Positions 6,985 to 63,963 of a stretch of 64,000 nt of DNA are shown here, piece by piece. This DNA comes from a virus. The number at the start of each line of letters is the position of its first letter. Positions within the stretch are counted from its first letter, which is position 1. Both the position numbers and the translations under genes were made by a program. The notes below the pieces were generated by a model, which was given only the letters and a program-made list of their open reading frames with translations, had not been told where the DNA came from and ran no database searches. The DNA lies in IMG/VR virus record IMGVR_UViG_3300019776_000657, positions 15,828 through 79,827 of that record; one strand, given 5' to 3'.

Positions 6985-7836
6985 ATGAGTATTGAATTCA
7001 ACAAAGTACAAGAGCTAGAATCAAACACTGCCCTAGTGGTGGACTGTCTCAATCTGGGTTTTCGATGGAAGCACAGTGGCGATACCGACTTCCTAGACAA
7101 CTATTTGAGAACAGTGGACAGCTTACGCAAGAGCTATAAAGCTGGTAAGGTTATCCTAACCTGTGACAGTGGTAGTAGTAGCTATCGTAAAGCTATTTAT
7201 CCTGACTACAAACAAAACCGCAAAGACAAGTTTGATCAGCAAACTCCAGAAGAGCAATTGGCTTTTGAACGATTCTTTACAGAGTTTAACCGTGTAATGG
7301 ATCACTATAAGAGTTCCTCAAAGCACCCACTATTTCGTTTTGAAAAGTGTGAAGCAGACGATATTGCTGCTTACATTGTGAAATACCGCAAAAAGCTGGG
7401 CATTGATAAAGTGGTCTTGATCTCTAGTGACAGAGACTGGGACTTGTTAATCAGTGAGGATGTAATGCGGTTTAGTTACGTTACACGCAAAGAAATTACA
7501 TGGGAAAATTGGAACGAACATTATGAGTACAACCCTGCTGATCATATTAGTATCAAGTGCCTTACTGGCGATTCCGGTGATAACATTCCTGGTGTGGCCG
7601 GAATTGGTCCGAAAAAGGCGCAAACTCTGGTATCTACTTATGGCAGTACCTGGGATATCATTGCTAATTTGCCAATTGTTAGTCGTTATAAATATGTTCA
7701 AAGTCTTAACGAGTTCGGGGCTGATGCCTTGATGTTAAACTACAAACTAATGGACCTGCTAGAATTCTGTGACGAAGCATTGGGTCCAACAAACTGCGAA
7801 ACCATTAATACCACACTCTTAAATTATGCTAATTAA
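6985..7836 (+). CDS. D15: flap endonuclease/5'-3' exonuclease, T5 D15-like
   Basis: YPDYKQNR, EADD, SSDRD, GDSGDNIPGVAGIGPK motifs. Confidence 0.95.
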   Translation: MSIEFNKVQELESNTALVVDCLNLGFRWKHSGDTDFLDNYLRTVDSLRKSYKAGKVILTCDSGSSSYRKAIYPDYKQNRKDKFDQQTPEEQLAFERFFTEFNRVMDHYKSSSKHPLFRFEKCEADDIAAYIVKYRKKLGIDKVVLISSDRDWDLLISEDVMRFSYVTRKEITWENWNEHYEYNPADHISIKCLTGDSGDNIPGVAGIGPKKAQTLVSTYGSTWDIIANLPIVSRYKYVQSLNEFGADALMLNYKLMDLLEFCDEALGPTNCETINTTLLNYAN

Positions 7837-8269
7837 ACTAGAACATCCAGCATGTATGCCTACTCGCAGCAACCCCACAGATGCTGGATTGGACTTACGA
7901 GCTAAAACTACAACTACTCTGCAAATGGGTAAAAGAACACTGGTACCTACTGGTGTAAGCGTAAAAATTCCTGTAAATAATGTGGGATTGCTGTTTCCAC
8001 GTAGCTCACTGAGCAAACAGGGTATTACAATGACCAATTCGGTTGGTGTAATTGACAGTGATTATCGTGGCGAAATCATGGCTTCACTCATGTTTAATGG
8101 GGTCCCAGGAAATTGTAACGAATTAGAATTGCCAGCTGGCGAACGAATTGTTCAGCTGGTTATAGTTCCAATTGTTATTCCAATGCTGGAAGTAATGGAT
8201 TGGTCAGAAAACGAATGGAATGACACACAACGCGGTACTGGCGGATTTGGCAGTACTGGAAAGGCTTAA
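7826..8269 (+). CDS. dut: dUTPase
   Basis: AGLDL, RSS, GVIDSDYRGE, RGTGGFGSTG. Confidence 0.97.
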   Translation: MLIKLEHPACMPTRSNPTDAGLDLRAKTTTTLQMGKRTLVPTGVSVKIPVNNVGLLFPRSSLSKQGITMTNSVGVIDSDYRGEIMASLMFNGVPGNCNELELPAGERIVQLVIVPIVIPMLEVMDWSENEWNDTQRGTGGFGSTGKA

Positions 8270-8271
8270 AT

Positions 8272-10128
8272 ATGGACGACAAACAAGCATTGGCAGATAT
8301 TACAGTATTTAACAAATACGCTCGATTTGATCACAGCTTAAATAGGCGCGAAAATTGGAGTGAAATTGTTACTCGCAATATGAATATGCACAAAACTAAG
8401 TATCCGCATATGAGTAGCAAAATCGATGAAGTCTATAAGGAATTTGTTTATACCAAGAAGGTATTACCATCCATGAGGTCACTGCAATTTGGTGGCAAAC
8501 CTATTTTGATGGCAGAAAACAGAATTTTCAACTGCGCATATATGCCTGCAGAATCTACAAAATTTTTTAGTGAACTTATGTTTCTACTTTTAGGTGGAAC
8601 AGGTGTTGGATACTCTGTACAAAGTCGACACATAAATAAGTTGCCAAAAATTAAAGCTCCTGAAAGCGATAATGAATACAAGTATCAAATTCAAGATAGT
8701 ATTGTAGGCTGGAGTGATGCAGTAAAAGTAGTATGTAAAGCGTTTTTTAATGCAGGTACTTTGCCTGTGTTTGACTACAGAGACATTCGCGAAAAAGGTG
8801 CTGATTTAATTACAACCGGAGGTCAAGCTCCGGGACCAGATCCTCTCAGAACTTGTATCGAAAATATGATTCCTATTTTTAGGAATGCCGTTGGACGTAG
8901 GTTGAAACCTGTAGAAGTACACGATTTGGCATGTATTATTGCTGATGCTGTATTAGCAGGAGGTATTCGTAGAGCTGCAATGATTTGCCTATTTGACAGA
9001 TTTGATGAAGAAATGTTAACTTGCAAATCCGGAGAATGGTGGAAAAATTATCCTGCCAGAGCACGCGCAAATAATTCTGCTGTACTACCACGAGGGGAGG
9101 TATCAGAACAAGAATTTAAATTGTTAATGAAGAGGGTAGAACAAAGTGGGTGCGGCGAGCCAGGAGTTTATTGGACTAACAATAAAGACTGGGGAACAAA
9201 TCCATGTTGTGAAATTGCTCTACGTCCCTACCAGATGTGTAATTTAACAGAAATTAATGCGGGCGCTATTAATTCTCAAAAAGACTTTAATAAAGTAAGT
9301 CGTGCAGCTAGTTTTATTGGTACATTGCAAGCAGGATATACAGATTTTCACTATCTAAATCCAAAATGGAAAATTGCTTGTGAAAAGGATGCTCTATTAG
9401 GTGTGTCCATGACTGGAATTGCCAGCGGAACTATTGAACAATTGGATAGTACTTGGGCTTCGGAAGAGGCTGTTGAGCAAAATAGAGAAACTGCGAGAGA
9501 TATTGGTATTAATCCAGCTGCTCGTACAACTACTGTCAAACCAGCAGGTACTACTAGCTTAGTATTAGGAACTAGTAGTGGTATTCATGCTTGGCATGCC
9601 CCATACTACATACGTCGTATGAGAGCCGGCAAAGATGAGGCTTTAGCTAAGTATATGAGTATTGCTGCACCTGAGCTTGTAGAACAAGATGTAATGAATG
9701 ACAAGCAGGTTGTATTAAGCTTTCCCCAAAAAGCTCCAGAGAATGCTAAAGTACGTACCGAATCAATGTTTAGCCTACTTGAACGAGTAAAACATGTAAG
9801 CCAAAGCTGGGTAGCTCCTGGACATACTGAGGGAGATAACAAACACAACGTATCTTGTACTATTTCTGTTAAAGACAACGAGTGGATACCTCTAACAGAA
9901 TGGATGTGGAAAAATAGAGAGTACTACAACGGTATATCAGTACTTCCGTACTTTGGGGCAGAAGCGTATCCACAACTGCCTTTTGAAGACATCACCAAAG
10001 AACAGTATGAAAAACTGCTGCCTTTCCTGAAAAATATTGATATTAGTCAGGTTTTTGAGAACAATGGGCGCTCAGTAGATCTTGCAAGTGAACTAGCCTG
10101 TAGTGGCGGAGCTTGCGAAATATTGTAA
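8272..10128 (+). CDS. nrdJ: class II (adenosylcobalamin-dependent) ribonucleotide reductase
   Basis: FNCAY, TNPCCEI, CNLTE, TVKPAGT, C-terminal CSGGAC; no beta subunit next to it. Confidence 0.85.
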   Translation: MDDKQALADITVFNKYARFDHSLNRRENWSEIVTRNMNMHKTKYPHMSSKIDEVYKEFVYTKKVLPSMRSLQFGGKPILMAENRIFNCAYMPAESTKFFSELMFLLLGGTGVGYSVQSRHINKLPKIKAPESDNEYKYQIQDSIVGWSDAVKVVCKAFFNAGTLPVFDYRDIREKGADLITTGGQAPGPDPLRTCIENMIPIFRNAVGRRLKPVEVHDLACIIADAVLAGGIRRAAMICLFDRFDEEMLTCKSGEWWKNYPARARANNSAVLPRGEVSEQEFKLLMKRVEQSGCGEPGVYWTNNKDWGTNPCCEIALRPYQMCNLTEINAGAINSQKDFNKVSRAASFIGTLQAGYTDFHYLNPKWKIACEKDALLGVSMTGIASGTIEQLDSTWASEEAVEQNRETARDIGINPAARTTTVKPAGTTSLVLGTSSGIHAWHAPYYIRRMRAGKDEALAKYMSIAAPELVEQDVMNDKQVVLSFPQKAPENAKVRTESMFSLLERVKHVSQSWVAPGHTEGDNKHNVSCTISVKDNEWIPLTEWMWKNREYYNGISVLPYFGAEAYPQLPFEDITKEQYEKLLPFLKNIDISQVFENNGRSVDLASELACSGGACEIL

Positions 10129-59713: not shown

Positions 59714-59951
59714 TAGTAAATTTTCTATGGGTGGGGTATTGACTGACTAGCTTTTTGGGAAAATTTCCAAAAATACCGCGTGCGGGTGGGCGCAGCGGGG
59801 GTAGGTAACTCACTAGTTTAATAACCGCCCCTGTCCTATTCTATCACGGAACCTACAGCATTGTAAATACCCTACTAATTTGTACGGAAATAAATTTGTG
59901 TGTGAAGTTCCATGCTATACTGTGTTCACTGTAGACAAAGAGGTAAACGAA

Positions 59952-60113
59952 ATGAACACACGAGAGCACATGGAAAACCTGGCGATCCGTTATGCTGATG
60001 CACTGGTTCGTTATCATCTTGACAAGAACCCCAGCAACTTTGACGACATGGCAGCACTGCACGACATGCTGAACATGGTATGCGTTGAAGTTGCCGAAGA
60101 GGAGGAAGTATGA
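59952..60113 (+). CDS. 53-aa pre-early hypothetical protein
   Basis: GAGG RBS, ATG 59952. Confidence 0.7.
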   Translation: MNTREHMENLAIRYADALVRYHLDKNPSNFDDMAALHDMLNMVCVEVAEEEEV

Positions 60114-60265
60114 CAAGCGCAGCAATTGTAAGACTGTGGGATGCCATCTCCATGGTAACCTATCTGACTAAGACCTGCGGGATGGCACTGCATGATGCGT
60201 GCAGAATCGCAGCAACAGAGCACGATGTGGACACCGTGCAACTGTATCGAATAATGACCGACTAA
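60110..60265 (+). CDS. 51-aa hypothetical protein (not in ORF track)
   Basis: GGAGG RBS, ATGA overlap; MTSAAIVRLWDAIS... Confidence 0.65.
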   Translation: MTSAAIVRLWDAISMVTYLTKTCGMALHDACRIAATEHDVDTVQLYRIMTD

Positions 60266-60349
60266 GATCAAGGGGATTAAATTTCCCCTTGATTGTGACA
60301 GGTGTTCTGGCTTAAAATCATTACATCGCAAGGCAAACAGGAGAGACGA

Positions 60350-60478
60350 ATGTACTACCCAGCAGACATGACAAAAGAAGACATTGAATCCTTCGAACTT
60401 GACATGGTTGCGGTGGAGTTGATCTGGAACGAAGACCCAATCAACTGGGAACTGCAAGAGTTGGCGGAGGGTGTATGA
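60350..60478 (+). CDS. 42-aa acidic protein (not in ORF track)
   Basis: AGGAG RBS; MYYPADMTKEDIESFELDMVAVELIWNEDPINWELQELAEGV. Confidence 0.7.
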   Translation: MYYPADMTKEDIESFELDMVAVELIWNEDPINWELQELAEGV

Positions 60479-60627
60479 CAGCATGGATGTTATTGGTTGA
60501 CGGACAACCCACAATGTACTATGATACAGAATGGGATGCTAACTGTGATGCCCAGCATCTCAGACACACACTGGGCAACAGCTGCCCTGACCTTCAAATC
60601 AAGAGGATGACACTATCATGGAAATGA
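60475..60627 (+). CDS. 50-aa hypothetical protein (not in ORF track)
   Basis: GGAGG RBS, ATGA overlap; MTAWMLLVDGQPTMYYD... Confidence 0.62.
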   Translation: MTAWMLLVDGQPTMYYDTEWDANCDAQHLRHTLGNSCPDLQIKRMTLSWK

Positions 60628-60701
60628 TCTGGTTCTTGGGGTTCTTGATCGTACCGACACTGATTGCCGGAATTGCAATGATCTTGATGGGGGAATGGTA
60701 A
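60618..60701 (+). CDS. 27-aa single-TM peptide (not in ORF track)
   Basis: GAGGA RBS; MEMIWFLGFLIVPTLIAGIAMILMGEW; TAATG coupling to the next gene. Confidence 0.55.
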   Translation: MEMIWFLGFLIVPTLIAGIAMILMGEW

Positions 60702-60922
60702 TGAACTGGAACGACTACGACACCGAGGAATTGGCCTCTATTTATAGTGACTACCACAAAGACGTGCACGGTGTTAGGCCTCGTGGTATTCCCCTTGACA
60801 ATCGAGGGGATTTGATCGAGGGATTAGAGGGATTGGACCGTTATATGCTGAACATGAAAGCCACCCCAGAAGGCAGGGCCAGGCTCAGGGCTGAAGGCTG
60901 GGTGATGCCAGAAGACGATTGA
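60701..60922 (+). CDS. hypothetical protein
   Basis: YSDYHKDVHGVRPR motif. Confidence 0.72.
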   Translation: MNWNDYDTEELASIYSDYHKDVHGVRPRGIPLDNRGDLIEGLEGLDRYMLNMKATPEGRARLRAEGWVMPEDD

Positions 60923-60951
60923 AAAAAGACCCCACAGTTTGTGGGGTTATA

Positions 60952-60990
60952 GGCGCCGAAATTATATCACATAATTTCGGGGGCTGTCAA
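60952..60990 (-). repeat. promoter-palindrome element, copy 1
   Basis: minus: TTGACA-N18-TATAAT-TTCGGCGCC; CCGAAATTAT-N5-ATAATTTCGG palindrome. Confidence 0.9.
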
Positions 60991-61087
60991 GGGCCTGGCC
61001 AATACCCGACCTGGGCTCGGGGTTAATGTGTTGACTGTTTTTTGCTGGGCGTGGTAACATGCGTCATCGCATCAAGAAAGGAATTGT

Positions 61088-61315
61088 ATGAAGGTTTTTA
61101 TCTTCAATCATCCCGTACCGTTTCCAGAATCAGAATATGGTGGCATGTGGGTTGTTCGTGCTGAGGGCCATTACCAAGCCGGACAGGTGGCATGGGAATA
61201 CTACGATGAGCCCGATGTGCGGGTGGAGATATTCCAGCAAGCTGCACTTGAGGGTCAATCGCTGGAACTGGTGAACCACGGCGAGCCCATGGTTCTGGAT
61301 TGTTTTTACACTTGA
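61088..61315 (+). CDS. hypothetical protein
   Basis: AAGGA RBS; VPFPESEYGG motif. Confidence 0.72.
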   Translation: MKVFIFNHPVPFPESEYGGMWVVRAEGHYQAGQVAWEYYDEPDVRVEIFQQAALEGQSLELVNHGEPMVLDCFYT

Positions 61316-61382
61316 AAAACCCTACGCTTGACAGGGTTATGTGTCAGGCACTAAAATCATCTTTCACTTTGGAGATTTTGAC

Positions 61383-61697
61383 ATGGCTGAGAAGACTGTA
61401 AATTATACCCCGGAACAAACCGCCTCCATGCTGGCGGATTACGCTCAAGGCGTGGCTGTTGAGGCCATCGCCGAGAGCCTAGGGAAAACCGTGCGCTCTG
61501 TTGTGGCCAAGCTGTCACGCGAGGGTGTTTATCGCAAGAAGGAATACGTCAGCAAAACTGGCGAGCGTCCTGTCAAGAAGGATGAGACTGCCGAGAAGAT
61601 CGGCACTCTGGCTGGATTGTCGGATGGTGAGATTGATTCACTCACCAAGGCCAACAAGACTGCATTGGCCAAGATCCTGGCCAAGCTGTCGGCTTGA
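61383..61697 (+). CDS. A2: T5 A2-like pre-early DNA-binding protein
   Basis: GGAG RBS; HTH-like IAESLGKTVRSVVAKL..Y and SL.KA.K pattern recalled from T5 A2. Confidence 0.7.
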   Translation: MAEKTVNYTPEQTASMLADYAQGVAVEAIAESLGKTVRSVVAKLSREGVYRKKEYVSKTGERPVKKDETAEKIGTLAGLSDGEIDSLTKANKTALAKILAKLSA

Positions 61698-61748
61698 CAA
61701 TAGGGGGAAACCCCTATTGACAACCCCTTGCCAAAATGGCAAGGGGTT

Positions 61749-61787
61749 GGCGCCAAAATTATACCACATAATTTTGGGGGCTGTCAA
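61749..61787 (-). repeat. promoter-palindrome element, copy 2
   Basis: minus: TTGACA-N18-TATAAT-TTTGGCGCC; CCAAAATTAT-N5-ATAATTTTGG. Confidence 0.9.
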
Positions 61788-61851
61788 CAGATTCCCGACA
61801 AAATTGTGGGGTTGTAAGAAAACTGTCAGGTAGGGCCGCGAGAATCTAGGG

Positions 61852-62229
61852 ATGGACAAGCAAACACTTCAAGACCTGGCGCAATACCATGTCAGGGCGT
61901 GGTGGGTCAAGTTTTTGGCTCAATACCCTACAATCCAAAGGGCCACTCCCAGAGTGACCTTGAACAATCGACTGAAGACCACGGCCGGGCGCGCTTTCAT
62001 TGAAGACAATCCCCAGCGAATCGACCTGTCAACGGACTTGTTCGAACAATACACGGACCACATGATTGTGGACACAATCCCCCACGAACTGGCGCACTTG
62101 GTGGCTTATACCATACACGGTGACCCCGGACATGGCAAGGGTTGGTATAGTGTACTAAAACAGATGGGCATTGTGACCACGCGATGCCACACAATGGTAA
62201 ACTACAGATTCGGTAGATACAAGGGTTGA
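61852..62229 (+). CDS. SprT-like zinc metalloprotease
   Basis: RLKTTAGRA..HELAH..HG.GW. Confidence 0.88.
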   Translation: MDKQTLQDLAQYHVRAWWVKFLAQYPTIQRATPRVTLNNRLKTTAGRAFIEDNPQRIDLSTDLFEQYTDHMIVDTIPHELAHLVAYTIHGDPGHGKGWYSVLKQMGIVTTRCHTMVNYRFGRYKG

Positions 62230-62230
62230 C

Positions 62231-62434
62231 ATGATTGGCTGGGTCGGTACTGTGGCAAGCGTGATCGGTAGCTTTGTGGTTGCCTTTCAGGTTTTTGTGA
62301 TCGGTTACATTCTTTTCTTGGTGGGCAGCGTTTCCTGGCTCTGGGTGGCCATCAAAACCCGGAATTTGAGTCTGGGTGTTTTGAATGGGTTTTTCATGGT
62401 TGCTAACATCATCGGATTGTGGAAGGCAATATAA
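62231..62434 (+). CDS. small three-TM membrane protein
   Basis: entirely hydrophobic 67 aa. Confidence 0.72.
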   Translation: MIGWVGTVASVIGSFVVAFQVFVIGYILFLVGSVSWLWVAIKTRNLSLGVLNGFFMVANIIGLWKAI

Positions 62435-62435
62435 A

Positions 62436-62576
62436 ATGTTGGAATATCAGGATTGGGTTTTTACTGAAGAAGCCGTTACTGGTTTTGAGATAATCGATTT
62501 GGTAATGGACCACCCAGATTGCTGGTATTGTCCGCCAAACGAATATCCTCCCTTAATGCCCTGTTGGTCGGAGTAA
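62436..62576 (+). CDS. 46-aa hypothetical protein
   Basis: ATG 62436 immediately after the previous stop. Confidence 0.55.
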   Translation: MLEYQDWVFTEEAVTGFEIIDLVMDHPDCWYCPPNEYPPLMPCWSE

Positions 62577-62582
62577 AACATA

Positions 62583-62780
62583 ATGGCTAAATACCGTATT
62601 GTTAAAATGGCTGGATATGAATGTTCATATAAAGTCCAACAAAAGTTTTTTAGATTCTTTTGGGCAACTATATATAGTTTTCTGAGTTTGGACGAAGCAG
62701 AGGATTATATTAAAACGGAAATAAGGCAGGACAAAGTAAGACAAGAAAATAAAAAGGATATTGTTATAAAAGAATATTGA
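62583..62780 (+). CDS. 65-aa hypothetical protein
   Basis: GGAG RBS; KYRIVK..Y.VQ..FF.FFW. Confidence 0.7.
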   Translation: MAKYRIVKMAGYECSYKVQQKFFRFFWATIYSFLSLDEAEDYIKTEIRQDKVRQENKKDIVIKEY

Positions 62781-62808
62781 ATACTATATAAGGGTTTACC
62801 CTTATATA

Positions 62809-62847
62809 GGCGCCAAAATTATAACACATAATTTTGGGCCATGTCAA
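62809..62847 (-). repeat. promoter-palindrome element, copy 3
   Basis: minus: TTGACA-N18-TATAAT-TTTGGCGCC; same palindrome. Confidence 0.9.
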
Positions 62848-62886
62848 GCCCCACGTCTAAAGCCCCTACAGGTTGTGGGGCTTTGT

Positions 62887-62905
62887 GGCGCCAAAATTAT
62901 ACCAC
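62887..62905 (-). repeat. promoter-palindrome element, copy 4 (half copy)
   Basis: GGCGCCAAAATTATACCAC; extended -10 only. Confidence 0.8.
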
Positions 62906-63024
62906 GGCCCACGTAGGCGACCCCTTCAAAAACCTTGAACGCACCCTACAAAATTTTTGATTGACAAAATTCTGTTGGTCCCCCATAATACACACATAGC
63001 AACAAACAACCGATAGGATACAAA

Positions 63025-63501
63025 ATGGCAAAGATCAATAAGGTTTCGATTTACGACATGGACGGTACCATTGTTAATTCACTGCATCGTTATCGGACCA
63101 TTATCGACGATAATGGTGAGAGAATCGATCTTCAATACTGGCGCGATAATCAGTATCGCGCTGGTGAAGATACTCTGTTGCCATTAGCCGAACAATATAA
63201 GCGTGATTTGCTGGACGATAATACTTTCGTTATTATCGCCACCGCCCGTGTTATGCACGAACCCGATTATCAATTTGTCCGTGAGGTACTCGGCGAACCC
63301 GATTATCTTATTTCTCGTCCAGAGGGTTCTACAGTATCTGGCAAAACCCTCAAAATTGCTGGCCTTGCCAAGTTTTTCAATTTGATCAATTTCCGTGATG
63401 CAGAATTTACATTCTATGAAGACAATATCGAATATCTCAAAGCGGTTTGCGACCGATTCAATATCAGGGGTGTATATGTTCCCTCAAAACAAGGTCATTA
63501 A
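63025..63501 (+). CDS. dmp: HAD-family deoxynucleoside-5'-monophosphatase, T5 Dmp-like
   Basis: YDMDGTIVNSLHR..DTLLPL..IIATAR..K..YEDN. Confidence 0.8.
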   Translation: MAKINKVSIYDMDGTIVNSLHRYRTIIDDNGERIDLQYWRDNQYRAGEDTLLPLAEQYKRDLLDDNTFVIIATARVMHEPDYQFVREVLGEPDYLISRPEGSTVSGKTLKIAGLAKFFNLINFRDAEFTFYEDNIEYLKAVCDRFNIRGVYVPSKQGH

Positions 63502-63538
63502 CTAACATACCCCGAAAGGGGTTATTATTGGAGAGTAT

Positions 63539-63715
63539 ATGAGAAACTGGGCAAAATGGTTAATTAACCATAATCTGAGGTGGGTTTTGTGCCTAATAAC
63601 GATTTTGTTTTTTCCGCTGTATTTTGCAGTTAATCTGAAACACTGCATTGTTAATACTGTGGAGGATTTTATGGGCGATTTTAATAATATCAGGACTCAC
63701 CCAAAGGGTAAATAA
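63539..63715 (+). CDS. 58-aa membrane-anchored protein (not in ORF track)
   Basis: GGAG RBS; MRNWAKWLINHNLRWVLCLITILFFPLYF...; TAATG coupling. Confidence 0.62.
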   Translation: MRNWAKWLINHNLRWVLCLITILFFPLYFAVNLKHCIVNTVEDFMGDFNNIRTHPKGK

Positions 63716-63963
63716 TGGAAACTATAGGTTGGCTAGGTGCCATATTGTTTGCAATATGTGGATTGCCTCAGGCAATACAATGTGCAAAAGATGGACATTC
63801 CAGAGGATTAAACTGGTTTTTCTTGGCCGCATGGTTGGGCGGTGAGATTATGACAATAATCTATATCTGGCCGAAACGTGATTATCCCCTGTTATTCAAT
63901 TACCTATTAAATCTGGTATTCTTGGGGATTATGATCCGATATAAAATCTGGGAGAGAAAATGA
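63715..63963 (+). CDS. PQ-loop/SemiSWEET-family small transporter
   Basis: IGW.G......LPQ......S.GL; three TM helices, 82 aa. Confidence 0.78.
   Translation: METIGWLGAILFAICGLPQAIQCAKDGHSRGLNWFFLAAWLGGEIMTIIYIWPKRDYPLLFNYLLNLVFLGIMIRYKIWERK

Follow-up and report, generated by a model that had tools for sequence, protein, structure and literature searches.

In a 64-kb window of the IMG/VR virus record IMGVR_UViG_3300019776_000657 (79,827 bases as a whole; all coordinates given here are positions in the window), we found a dispersed array of repeated units, the full copies of which set a predicted promoter for the housekeeping RNA polymerase of the host, overlaid by a palindrome and followed by a hairpin, against the direction of the genes around it. 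Judging from its gene content, the source phage is a distant uncultured T5-like siphovirus, and the units are located in its pre-early block. Our explanation as a whole, to which we assign a probability of roughly 0.5, is that these are backward mini-units for the host polymerase that punctuate the ends of pre-early operons and that are also used as crossover points for gene cassettes. Taken separately, the sequence makes it very probable that each unit is a promoter/terminator mini-unit for the host housekeeping RNA polymerase; a punctuation or antisense role is a more tentative proposal, for which the odds appear somewhat short of even.

The motif GGCGCCRAAATTATA occurred four times in the window, always on the plus strand, at positions 60952, 61749, 62809 and 62887, and none of 100 shuffled sequences reached this count. 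These sites are the three full copies and the half copy that an earlier note on this window had described, and the full copies (units 1, 2 and 3 in Table 1) constitute one 44-nt repeat family. On the minus strand all three read TTGACA-N18-TGnTATAAT-TT(T/C)GGCGCC, as had been claimed, with a 12/12 match to the sigma70 hexamers. They are positioned 29–52 nt past a plus-strand stop codon, and no credible leftward open reading frame (ORF) was found downstream of the leftward promoters in the window; both points had likewise been anticipated. The contrast that had been drawn between the 18-bp spacer of the units and the spacers of other promoters was borne out: the remaining promoters in the record scoring at least 11/12 are all sense-oriented and, in all but one case, have spacers of 17 bp. 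Because these sense promoters use the same consensus, the host polymerase evidently reads TTGACA/TATAAT in this phage. The half copy was present at its reported site but proved not to be merely a fragment; as judged from its sequence, it is an extended –10-only variant.

The earlier note had proposed a genome-wide and cross-phage search for the motif. Within the 79,827-base record, the four window sites were the only occurrences even when up to one mismatch was allowed. A scan of IMG/VR with a 15-mer returned many contigs carrying two to six copies, and a profile search inside those loci then extended the set to 120 distinct related copies from about 28 metagenomic loci (101 with the palindrome and 19 without it). 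Many of these loci are mutually related, and their copies therefore do not count as independent events. For the full set of 120, the –35 tallies are partly imposed by the extraction pattern, whereas a tally over 78 distinct copies picked by the left 15-mer alone is unbiased. In the latter, 74 copies matched at least five of the six bases of TTGACA at a distance of 17–18 bp (62 of them perfectly), and the TG before the –10 was kept in 69/78. The spacer separating the –35 from the –10 was 18 bp in 106/120 copies (otherwise sometimes 17), though the arms of the palindrome varied from 8 to 14 bp and its loops had 3–7 nt; changes in arm and loop length were offset by GC-rich filler, which held the length of the spacer. 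In the copies that lack the palindrome, the –35 was still located 17–18 bp from the –10. Past the –10, the conserved core reads TTTGGCGC on the minus strand, followed by C or A. As far as these copies allow us to judge, the promoter is the invariant part of the element.

The palindrome of the full copies in the window consists of 10-bp arms and a 5-nt loop and lies over the –10 and the adjacent spacer. DNA folding of these copies gave hairpins of –7.7 to –10.5 kcal/mol (z values of –3.4 to –5.8 compared with shuffled sequences), and the half copy at 62887 gave no DNA hairpin. The proposal that selection acts on the symmetry, made on the basis of a compensated G/C change in copy 1, was strengthened by the relatives: 39 distinct left arms were observed, all compensated in the other arm and differing even inside one genome, and Watson–Crick pairing across the related copies was 94–100% at each arm position. 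A bias toward G·T wobble pairs, which could have distinguished RNA from DNA pairing and indicated the strand, was sought and not found; among about 1000 pairs, only two were G·T and three A·C. Since G·T was no commoner than other mismatches, the pattern fits a palindrome kept at the DNA level better than a single-stranded RNA stem. From the pairing, a DNA hairpin or cruciform would be expected to form over the –10.

The compensated arm variants also speak against recognition of fixed half-sites by a protein, and they bear on the possibility that a dimeric DNA-binding protein of the phage, such as the A2-like protein of 104 aa, has the element as its operator and would switch the leftward promoters or mark the DNA for second-step transfer. 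In line with an operator, the palindrome overlies the –10, and nearly all unit-bearing loci carry an A2-like gene alongside the units, the window protein falling into PHROG 1725 as does T5 A2. However, this co-occurrence may be mere shared ancestry, the copies within one genome bear different, mutually compensated arms that fit base pairing rather than fixed half-sites, and 19 copies have no palindrome at all. We therefore give an operator only a slim chance.

A DNA hairpin in the first-expressed region also recalls the N4-type promoters, in which case the units would be read rightward by a phage-encoded RNA polymerase. The units have a hairpin, TTTT and then G approximately 11–14 nt from the loop center, a geometry resembling that of the early promoters of N4 and LUZ7 (PMC4496689, PMC9163698), and they stand after terminators and before plus-strand genes. 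Against this, the copies without the hairpin hold their –35 at a fixed spacing, and we consider such a reading extremely improbable. In the search for a polymerase, a 3291-aa ORF was examined as a candidate virion RNA polymerase and rejected: PHROGs assigned it to tail fibre J (tail-tip/fibre) and a neighboring ORF to the tape measure. Neither the record nor three relatives with a completeness of 91% or more gave a match to the single-subunit RNA polymerase family PF00940, in a search run without a positive control. A rightward sigma70 promoter with the right arm as its –10 was also tried and discarded; it had no conserved –35, and its best scores were mostly 7–9/12.

On the minus strand, each full copy is followed directly by a hairpin of its own, as had been noted, and the sequence of this hairpin differs from copy to copy. 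The hairpin of unit 1 is located just past the stop codon of the plus-strand ORF 60695–60922, and together with its U-tract it predicts an RNA of approximately 31–33 nt (about 35 nt in the earlier note), assuming initiation 7 nt past the –10. The hairpins of unit 2 have no clear U-tract on either strand. Among the relatives, a hairpin was found 0–4 nt from GCGCC in 92/119 copies, usually with an A-rich left flank and a T-rich right flank and thus bidirectional. A leftward T-tract of at least five T was present in 42/119 copies, compared with 15 for a rightward one, and 66/119 had at least four T leftward; by this measure, the hairpins look more like terminators for leftward than for rightward RNA. 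Tandem pairs of units in the relatives have one hairpin per unit. From their sequence, the adjoining hairpins are best described as putative bidirectional terminators private to each unit. We also observed a small palindrome, TAGGGG-N4-CCCCTA with TTGACA/TGTCAA flanks, at 61691–61726, just before the hairpin of unit 2; it recurs in many relatives, often directly past the –35 of the unit (TGTCAATAGGGG...CCCCTAT).

Promoters of consensus strength that are followed by immediate termination might act as an RNA polymerase sink or as a source of short 5΄-triphosphate hairpin RNAs, acting on host polymerase, Hfq, RNases or an RNA-sensing defence in the manner of a decoy, and the variable hairpin sequences do not imply any specific target. 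However, 3–11 sites per genome are too few to titrate the cellular polymerase, the GC-rich start region speaks against very stable open complexes, and we found nothing specific in favor of a decoy role or of a staged-injection role; a sink or decoy is therefore a very doubtful proposition.

The placement of the copies was consistent across loci. The surrounding genes are on the strand opposite to the reading of the promoter in nearly every locus, most copies in the relatives lie no more than 100 nt downstream of the stop codon of a plus-strand ORF, and a separate rightward promoter-like –10 is found 40–110 nt beyond the unit. In complete relatives of approximately 100 kb, all copies are on one strand and clustered within 3–6.5 kb: those of G001 fall within about 5 kb, and those of G002 form an array of approximately 6.5 kb that wraps across both record ends. 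The number of units per genome ranges from 3 to 11, and the Dmp identity (deoxynucleoside 5΄-monophosphatase) of the carriers ranges from 94% down to about 30%. In L020 and L094, which derive from a much more distant T5-like phage (94 kb, Dmp identity approximately 32%), three units read TTGACA-N18-TATAATTTTGGCGCC without a palindrome, and a conserved 24-nt stretch separates GGCGCC from the next hairpin.

In the mechanism that we infer from this arrangement, the host holoenzyme would bind the consensus –35, the 18-bp spacer and the extended –10, oriented against the pre-early genes, and would initiate inside the conserved GGCGC; with the private hairpin terminator 0–4 nt further on, the resulting RNA would be only about 30–45 nt long. 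Alternatively, the bound polymerase might merely sit head-on to rightward traffic. The AT-rich palindrome may extrude as a DNA hairpin or cruciform and gate the promoter; if extrusion silences the promoter, the latter would presumably be sensitive to superhelicity. Where a rightward pre-early operon ends, a short way upstream of the following rightward promoter, a head-on polymerase, a short RNA antisense to the upstream 3΄ hairpin, or both, could stop or destabilize the rightward transcripts, with the outcome that each cassette would be expressed independently, and the conserved linkers of approximately 45 bp could double as crossover points for cassette exchange. Punctuation would be the simplest role for units that stand at operon ends, directly behind hairpins whose rightward U-tracts are poor.

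Several points weigh against this explanation. The GGCGC past the –10 is conserved at 82–95% per base, beyond the needs of promoter function, and an 18-bp spacer is suboptimal for sigma70. Within the window, only copy 1 has a convincing leftward U-tract; the hairpins of copies 2 and 3 have no clear one. Given the poor rightward U-tracts, rightward transcripts may need to be stopped or may normally read through, and part of the conservation at the nucleotide level could stem from recombinational homogenization rather than from function. A further-reaching interpretation, which we consider distinctly unlikely, is that host-polymerase promoter, extrudable cruciform and private terminator together make up a new class of DNA element that senses the topological or entry state of the injected DNA. 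As an insulator, such an element would set the timing of pre-early expression while the DNA is injected in two steps; the RNA would be incidental, and a strand-specific nick at GGCGC might be coupled to the element.

The breakpoints of homology between the window and its relatives L039 and L019 were located on or beside the units. Two alignments of the window with L039 (62580–62849 with 8795–9064, and 62779–63548 with 7787–8558) overlap exactly on unit 3, and unit 3 is accordingly a chimera of two L039 units. The gene at 62583–62780 is relocated compared with the relatives: L019 and L039 have it on the opposite side of dmp, and the gene order of the window is a circular permutation of the L019/L039 order. 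In comparison with the relatives, the 61005–61315 cassette has been replaced immediately to the right of unit 1. The gene content between units also differs among the relatives. The evidence for recombination comes from two junction cases.

These junctions raise the question of whether the units are mobile cassettes similar to the promoter-early stem-loops (PeSLs) of T4-like phages, which combine sigma70 promoters with stem-loops and have been shown to recombine (PMC2839356). The conservation would then exist mainly to provide homology patches, perhaps cruciform-cut hot spots, for swaps of pre-early cassettes between co-infecting phages, and promoter activity would be secondary. The chimeric unit 3, the relocated gene, the replaced cassette and the variable gene content between units all agree with this, and recombination may account for part of the conservation at the nucleotide level. 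However, homology patches require neither an exact –35/–10 spacing nor a TG nor compensated pairing, the promoters of PeSLs are sense-oriented with a Shine–Dalgarno (SD) sequence and ATG while the units are antisense and orphan, and only two junction cases form the basis of the argument. We consider a role mainly in recombination unlikely, though it deserves more weight than the other alternatives.

The strong conservation of GGCGC beside a hairpin bears in turn on a nick or DNA-processing signal of the T5 type, in which the minus-strand G^GCGC would be a nickase site or a packaging/injection signal and polymerase binding would be coupled or incidental. The major nicks of T5 occur at Pu^GCGC on one strand (record notes of NC_005859; given as R/GCGCRGG in PMC3517423), the nick in the T5 terminal repeat is AAAA^GCGC-A followed by a hairpin, a layout like that of TTTG^GCGC-C/A plus hairpin here, and the minus-strand GGCGC is retained in variants even where the plus-strand palindrome is lost. 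On the other hand, the bases that follow GCGC in the units are C/A and then variable, not the RGG of the extended T5 consensus R^GCGCRGG; the –35, the TG, the spacing and the palindrome would be left unexplained; T5 nicks are dispersed, not clustered; and the genome-wide strand bias of GGCGC does not single out the TGGCGC form of the unit. A nick signal therefore seems improbable to us. The counts of non-palindromic GGCGC on the plus and minus strands were 31 and 2 in G000 (the whole record), 47 and 18 in G001, and 56 and 22 in G002. Regions of plus-strand and of minus-strand genes in G000 are biased in the same direction, and the class depleted on the minus strand is (A/C/G)GGCGC, not TGGCGC. 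We set this asymmetry aside as support for a nick signal: it is real, but the depleted class excludes the TGGCGC of the unit.

Table 1. Units, adjacent hairpins and neighboring features of the pre-early block (positions in the window)
Feature	Position	Strand	Details
Unit 1, leftward promoter (predicted) and palindrome	60952–60990	–	–35 at 60990–60985, –10 at 60966–60961, TG, GGCGCC at 60957–60952
Unit 2, leftward promoter (predicted) and palindrome	61749–61787	–	–35 at 61787–61782, –10 at 61763–61758
Unit 3, leftward promoter (predicted) and palindrome	62809–62847	–	–35 at 62847–62842, –10 at 62823–62818; chimeric with respect to two L039 units
Half copy	62887–62905	–	GGCGCC and TGnTATAAT, –10 at 62901–62896; without –35 and right arm
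Hairpin and U-tract (CTTTTTT) directly after the start site of unit 1	60921–60947	–	Hairpin at 60947–60929; predicted terminator of the leftward RNA
Two hairpins after unit 2	61700–61749		13-bp stem at 61721–61749; TAGGGG/CCCCTA stem at 61700–61717
AT-rich hairpin abutting unit 3	62784–62809		GGG/CCC core
Hairpin separating unit 3 from the half copy	62859–62884		Bidirectional, AAAG...CTTT flanks
Sense promoter-like site for gene 61088–61315	61031–61060	+	Back-to-back with unit 1
dmp promoter, TTGACA-17-CATAAT	62961–62989	+	Rightward
Dmp homologue	63025–63501	+	Marker gene of the pre-early (first-step-transfer) region
104-aa DNA-binding protein, distant relative of T5 A2	61383–61697	+	PHROG 1725 in common with T5 A2

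The T5-like setting assumed in the earlier note was upheld by matches of the terminase, Dmp and the A2-like protein. In protein comparisons, the large terminase showed approximately 48% identity to those of T5-like Vibrio phages, and the Dmp of the window showed approximately 31–33% identity to the Dmp proteins annotated in the terminal repeats of My1 and PR1. Compared directly with T5 A2, the 104-aa protein gave a pairwise E value of 0.014, and a distant homology to A2 is probable from its sequence. The A2-like gene is the most consistent neighbor of the units, with 59–94% identity in most loci and approximately 34% in L020/L094. As in a Demerecviridae-type pre-early region, Dmp and A2 homologues lie beside the terminase end of the late block, and the pre-early block, on the plus strand, adjoins this end of the minus-strand late block. 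Here, dmp is oriented away from the late block; in the T5 record (NC_005859, 124–858) the gene occupies the far left end, on the minus strand, and is transcribed toward the terminus. Between the late block and dmp, no A1-sized gene was seen, although no search was aimed at A1.

Small plus-strand ORFs with overlapping stops and starts tile the region before unit 1 (59880–60113, 60110–60265, 60302–60478, 60475–60627 and 60695–60922), and a 166-aa minus-strand ORF at 60014–60514 is therefore probably spurious; a start of the pre-early block near 59.9 kb is likewise probable. The first bases of the record (L005, 1–180) fall within a tRNA cluster, and its end, at window position 63960, is at the start of another plus-strand gene. 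The phage also carries a two-piece tmRNA. Given a CheckV completeness of 76% and complete relatives of approximately 100 kb, roughly 20 kb of early or pre-early DNA are missing from the record. Some rightward genes begin 6–8 nt past a –10-like hexamer, for example GAGAAT-N6-ATG at 61840–61854, and TGnTATAAT-N6/7-ATG is found upstream of rightward genes in many relatives. This spacing points to mRNAs that are leaderless, and to sense promoters of the extended –10 type that lack a –35.

Outside the phage loci, a 19-base composite pattern of the unit had 11 matches in 185,579 species genomes, all on short contigs of metagenome-assembled genomes (MAGs) from unrelated taxa. These unit-bearing contigs (L129–L139) had been binned as Acidimicrobiia, Saccharibacteria, Chitinophagaceae, Nanopelagicaceae and others, and they are probably phage DNA mis-binned from freshwater samples; the matches gave no clue to the host and revealed no host promoter of this sequence. 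Cultured phages had no BLAST match to the region or to a single unit, and an Rfam search of 60500–63100 with E values up to 1 gave no match either.

If our explanation is correct, a freshwater T5-like lineage sets consensus host promoters backward at the ends of its first-expressed operons, which would constitute an undescribed means of insulating or braking early genes. The design has been retained while the proteins diverged to approximately 30% identity. The relatives would then provide about 100 naturally occurring promoter variants with a co-varying DNA hairpin over the –10, in which the gating of sigma70 promoters by cruciforms and spacer length could be studied. In addition, the units appear to mark the points at which pre-early cassettes are exchanged, which bears on the shuffling of host-takeover genes among phages.

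We compared the units with several known systems and found no published description of their design or function; none of the systems has orphan consensus promoters that are arrayed backward and combined with a compensated palindrome and with private terminators. The lambda pO/OOP unit encodes a single 77-nt antisense RNA that overlaps the cII coding sequence. As is predicted for the units, it yields a short RNA that runs from its own promoter to its own terminator and opposes a rightward early gene at its 3΄ end; a geometry of this kind, with an RNA that pairs with the 3΄ part of a convergent mRNA, would fit the sequence of copy 1. The units differ from OOP in that they form arrays of 3–11, overlap only the 3΄ hairpin or stop codon of the gene, and have a compensated palindrome over the –10.

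The early promoters of N4 and LUZ7 share with the units a DNA hairpin whose pairing is kept and a location in the first-expressed region. Their extrusion is tied to supercoiling, and they have stems of 4–7 bp and 3-nt loops, are sense-oriented and are used by a phage virion RNA polymerase (PMC4496689, PMC9163698). In contrast, the conserved features of the units are sigma70 hexamers on the opposite strand, and no virion RNA polymerase was found in this phage.

The single-chain interruptions of T5 resemble the units in their Pu^GCGC core on one strand, and the nick in the terminal repeat abuts a hairpin in first-step-transfer DNA. However, T5 nicks are dispersed, have neither promoter nor palindrome and follow the extended GCGCRGG (notes of NC_005859; PMC3517423). 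The first-step-transfer DNA of T5 also contains arrays of DnaA boxes and inverted repeats in large untranslated regions (bioRxiv 10.1101/866236). These repeats and the injection stop signal are, like the units, non-coding pre-early repeats and palindromes conserved above the neighboring genes; the T5 terminal repeat differs in that a scan for the same design detected no array of antisense consensus promoters.

The PeSLs of the T4-like phages RB49 and phi1 consist of a sigma70-like promoter and a stem-loop that is often between or over the –35 and –10 (PMC2839356). They are likewise repeated intergenic cassettes in plastic early regions, where they combine a terminator with sites of recombination and gene shuffling. 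In PeSLs, however, the promoter is sense-oriented with an SD sequence and start codon next to it and the stem is GGGG/CCCC, whereas the units are antisense with no ORF, and they have an AT-rich palindrome, a separate predicted terminator of their own and GGCGC after the –10.

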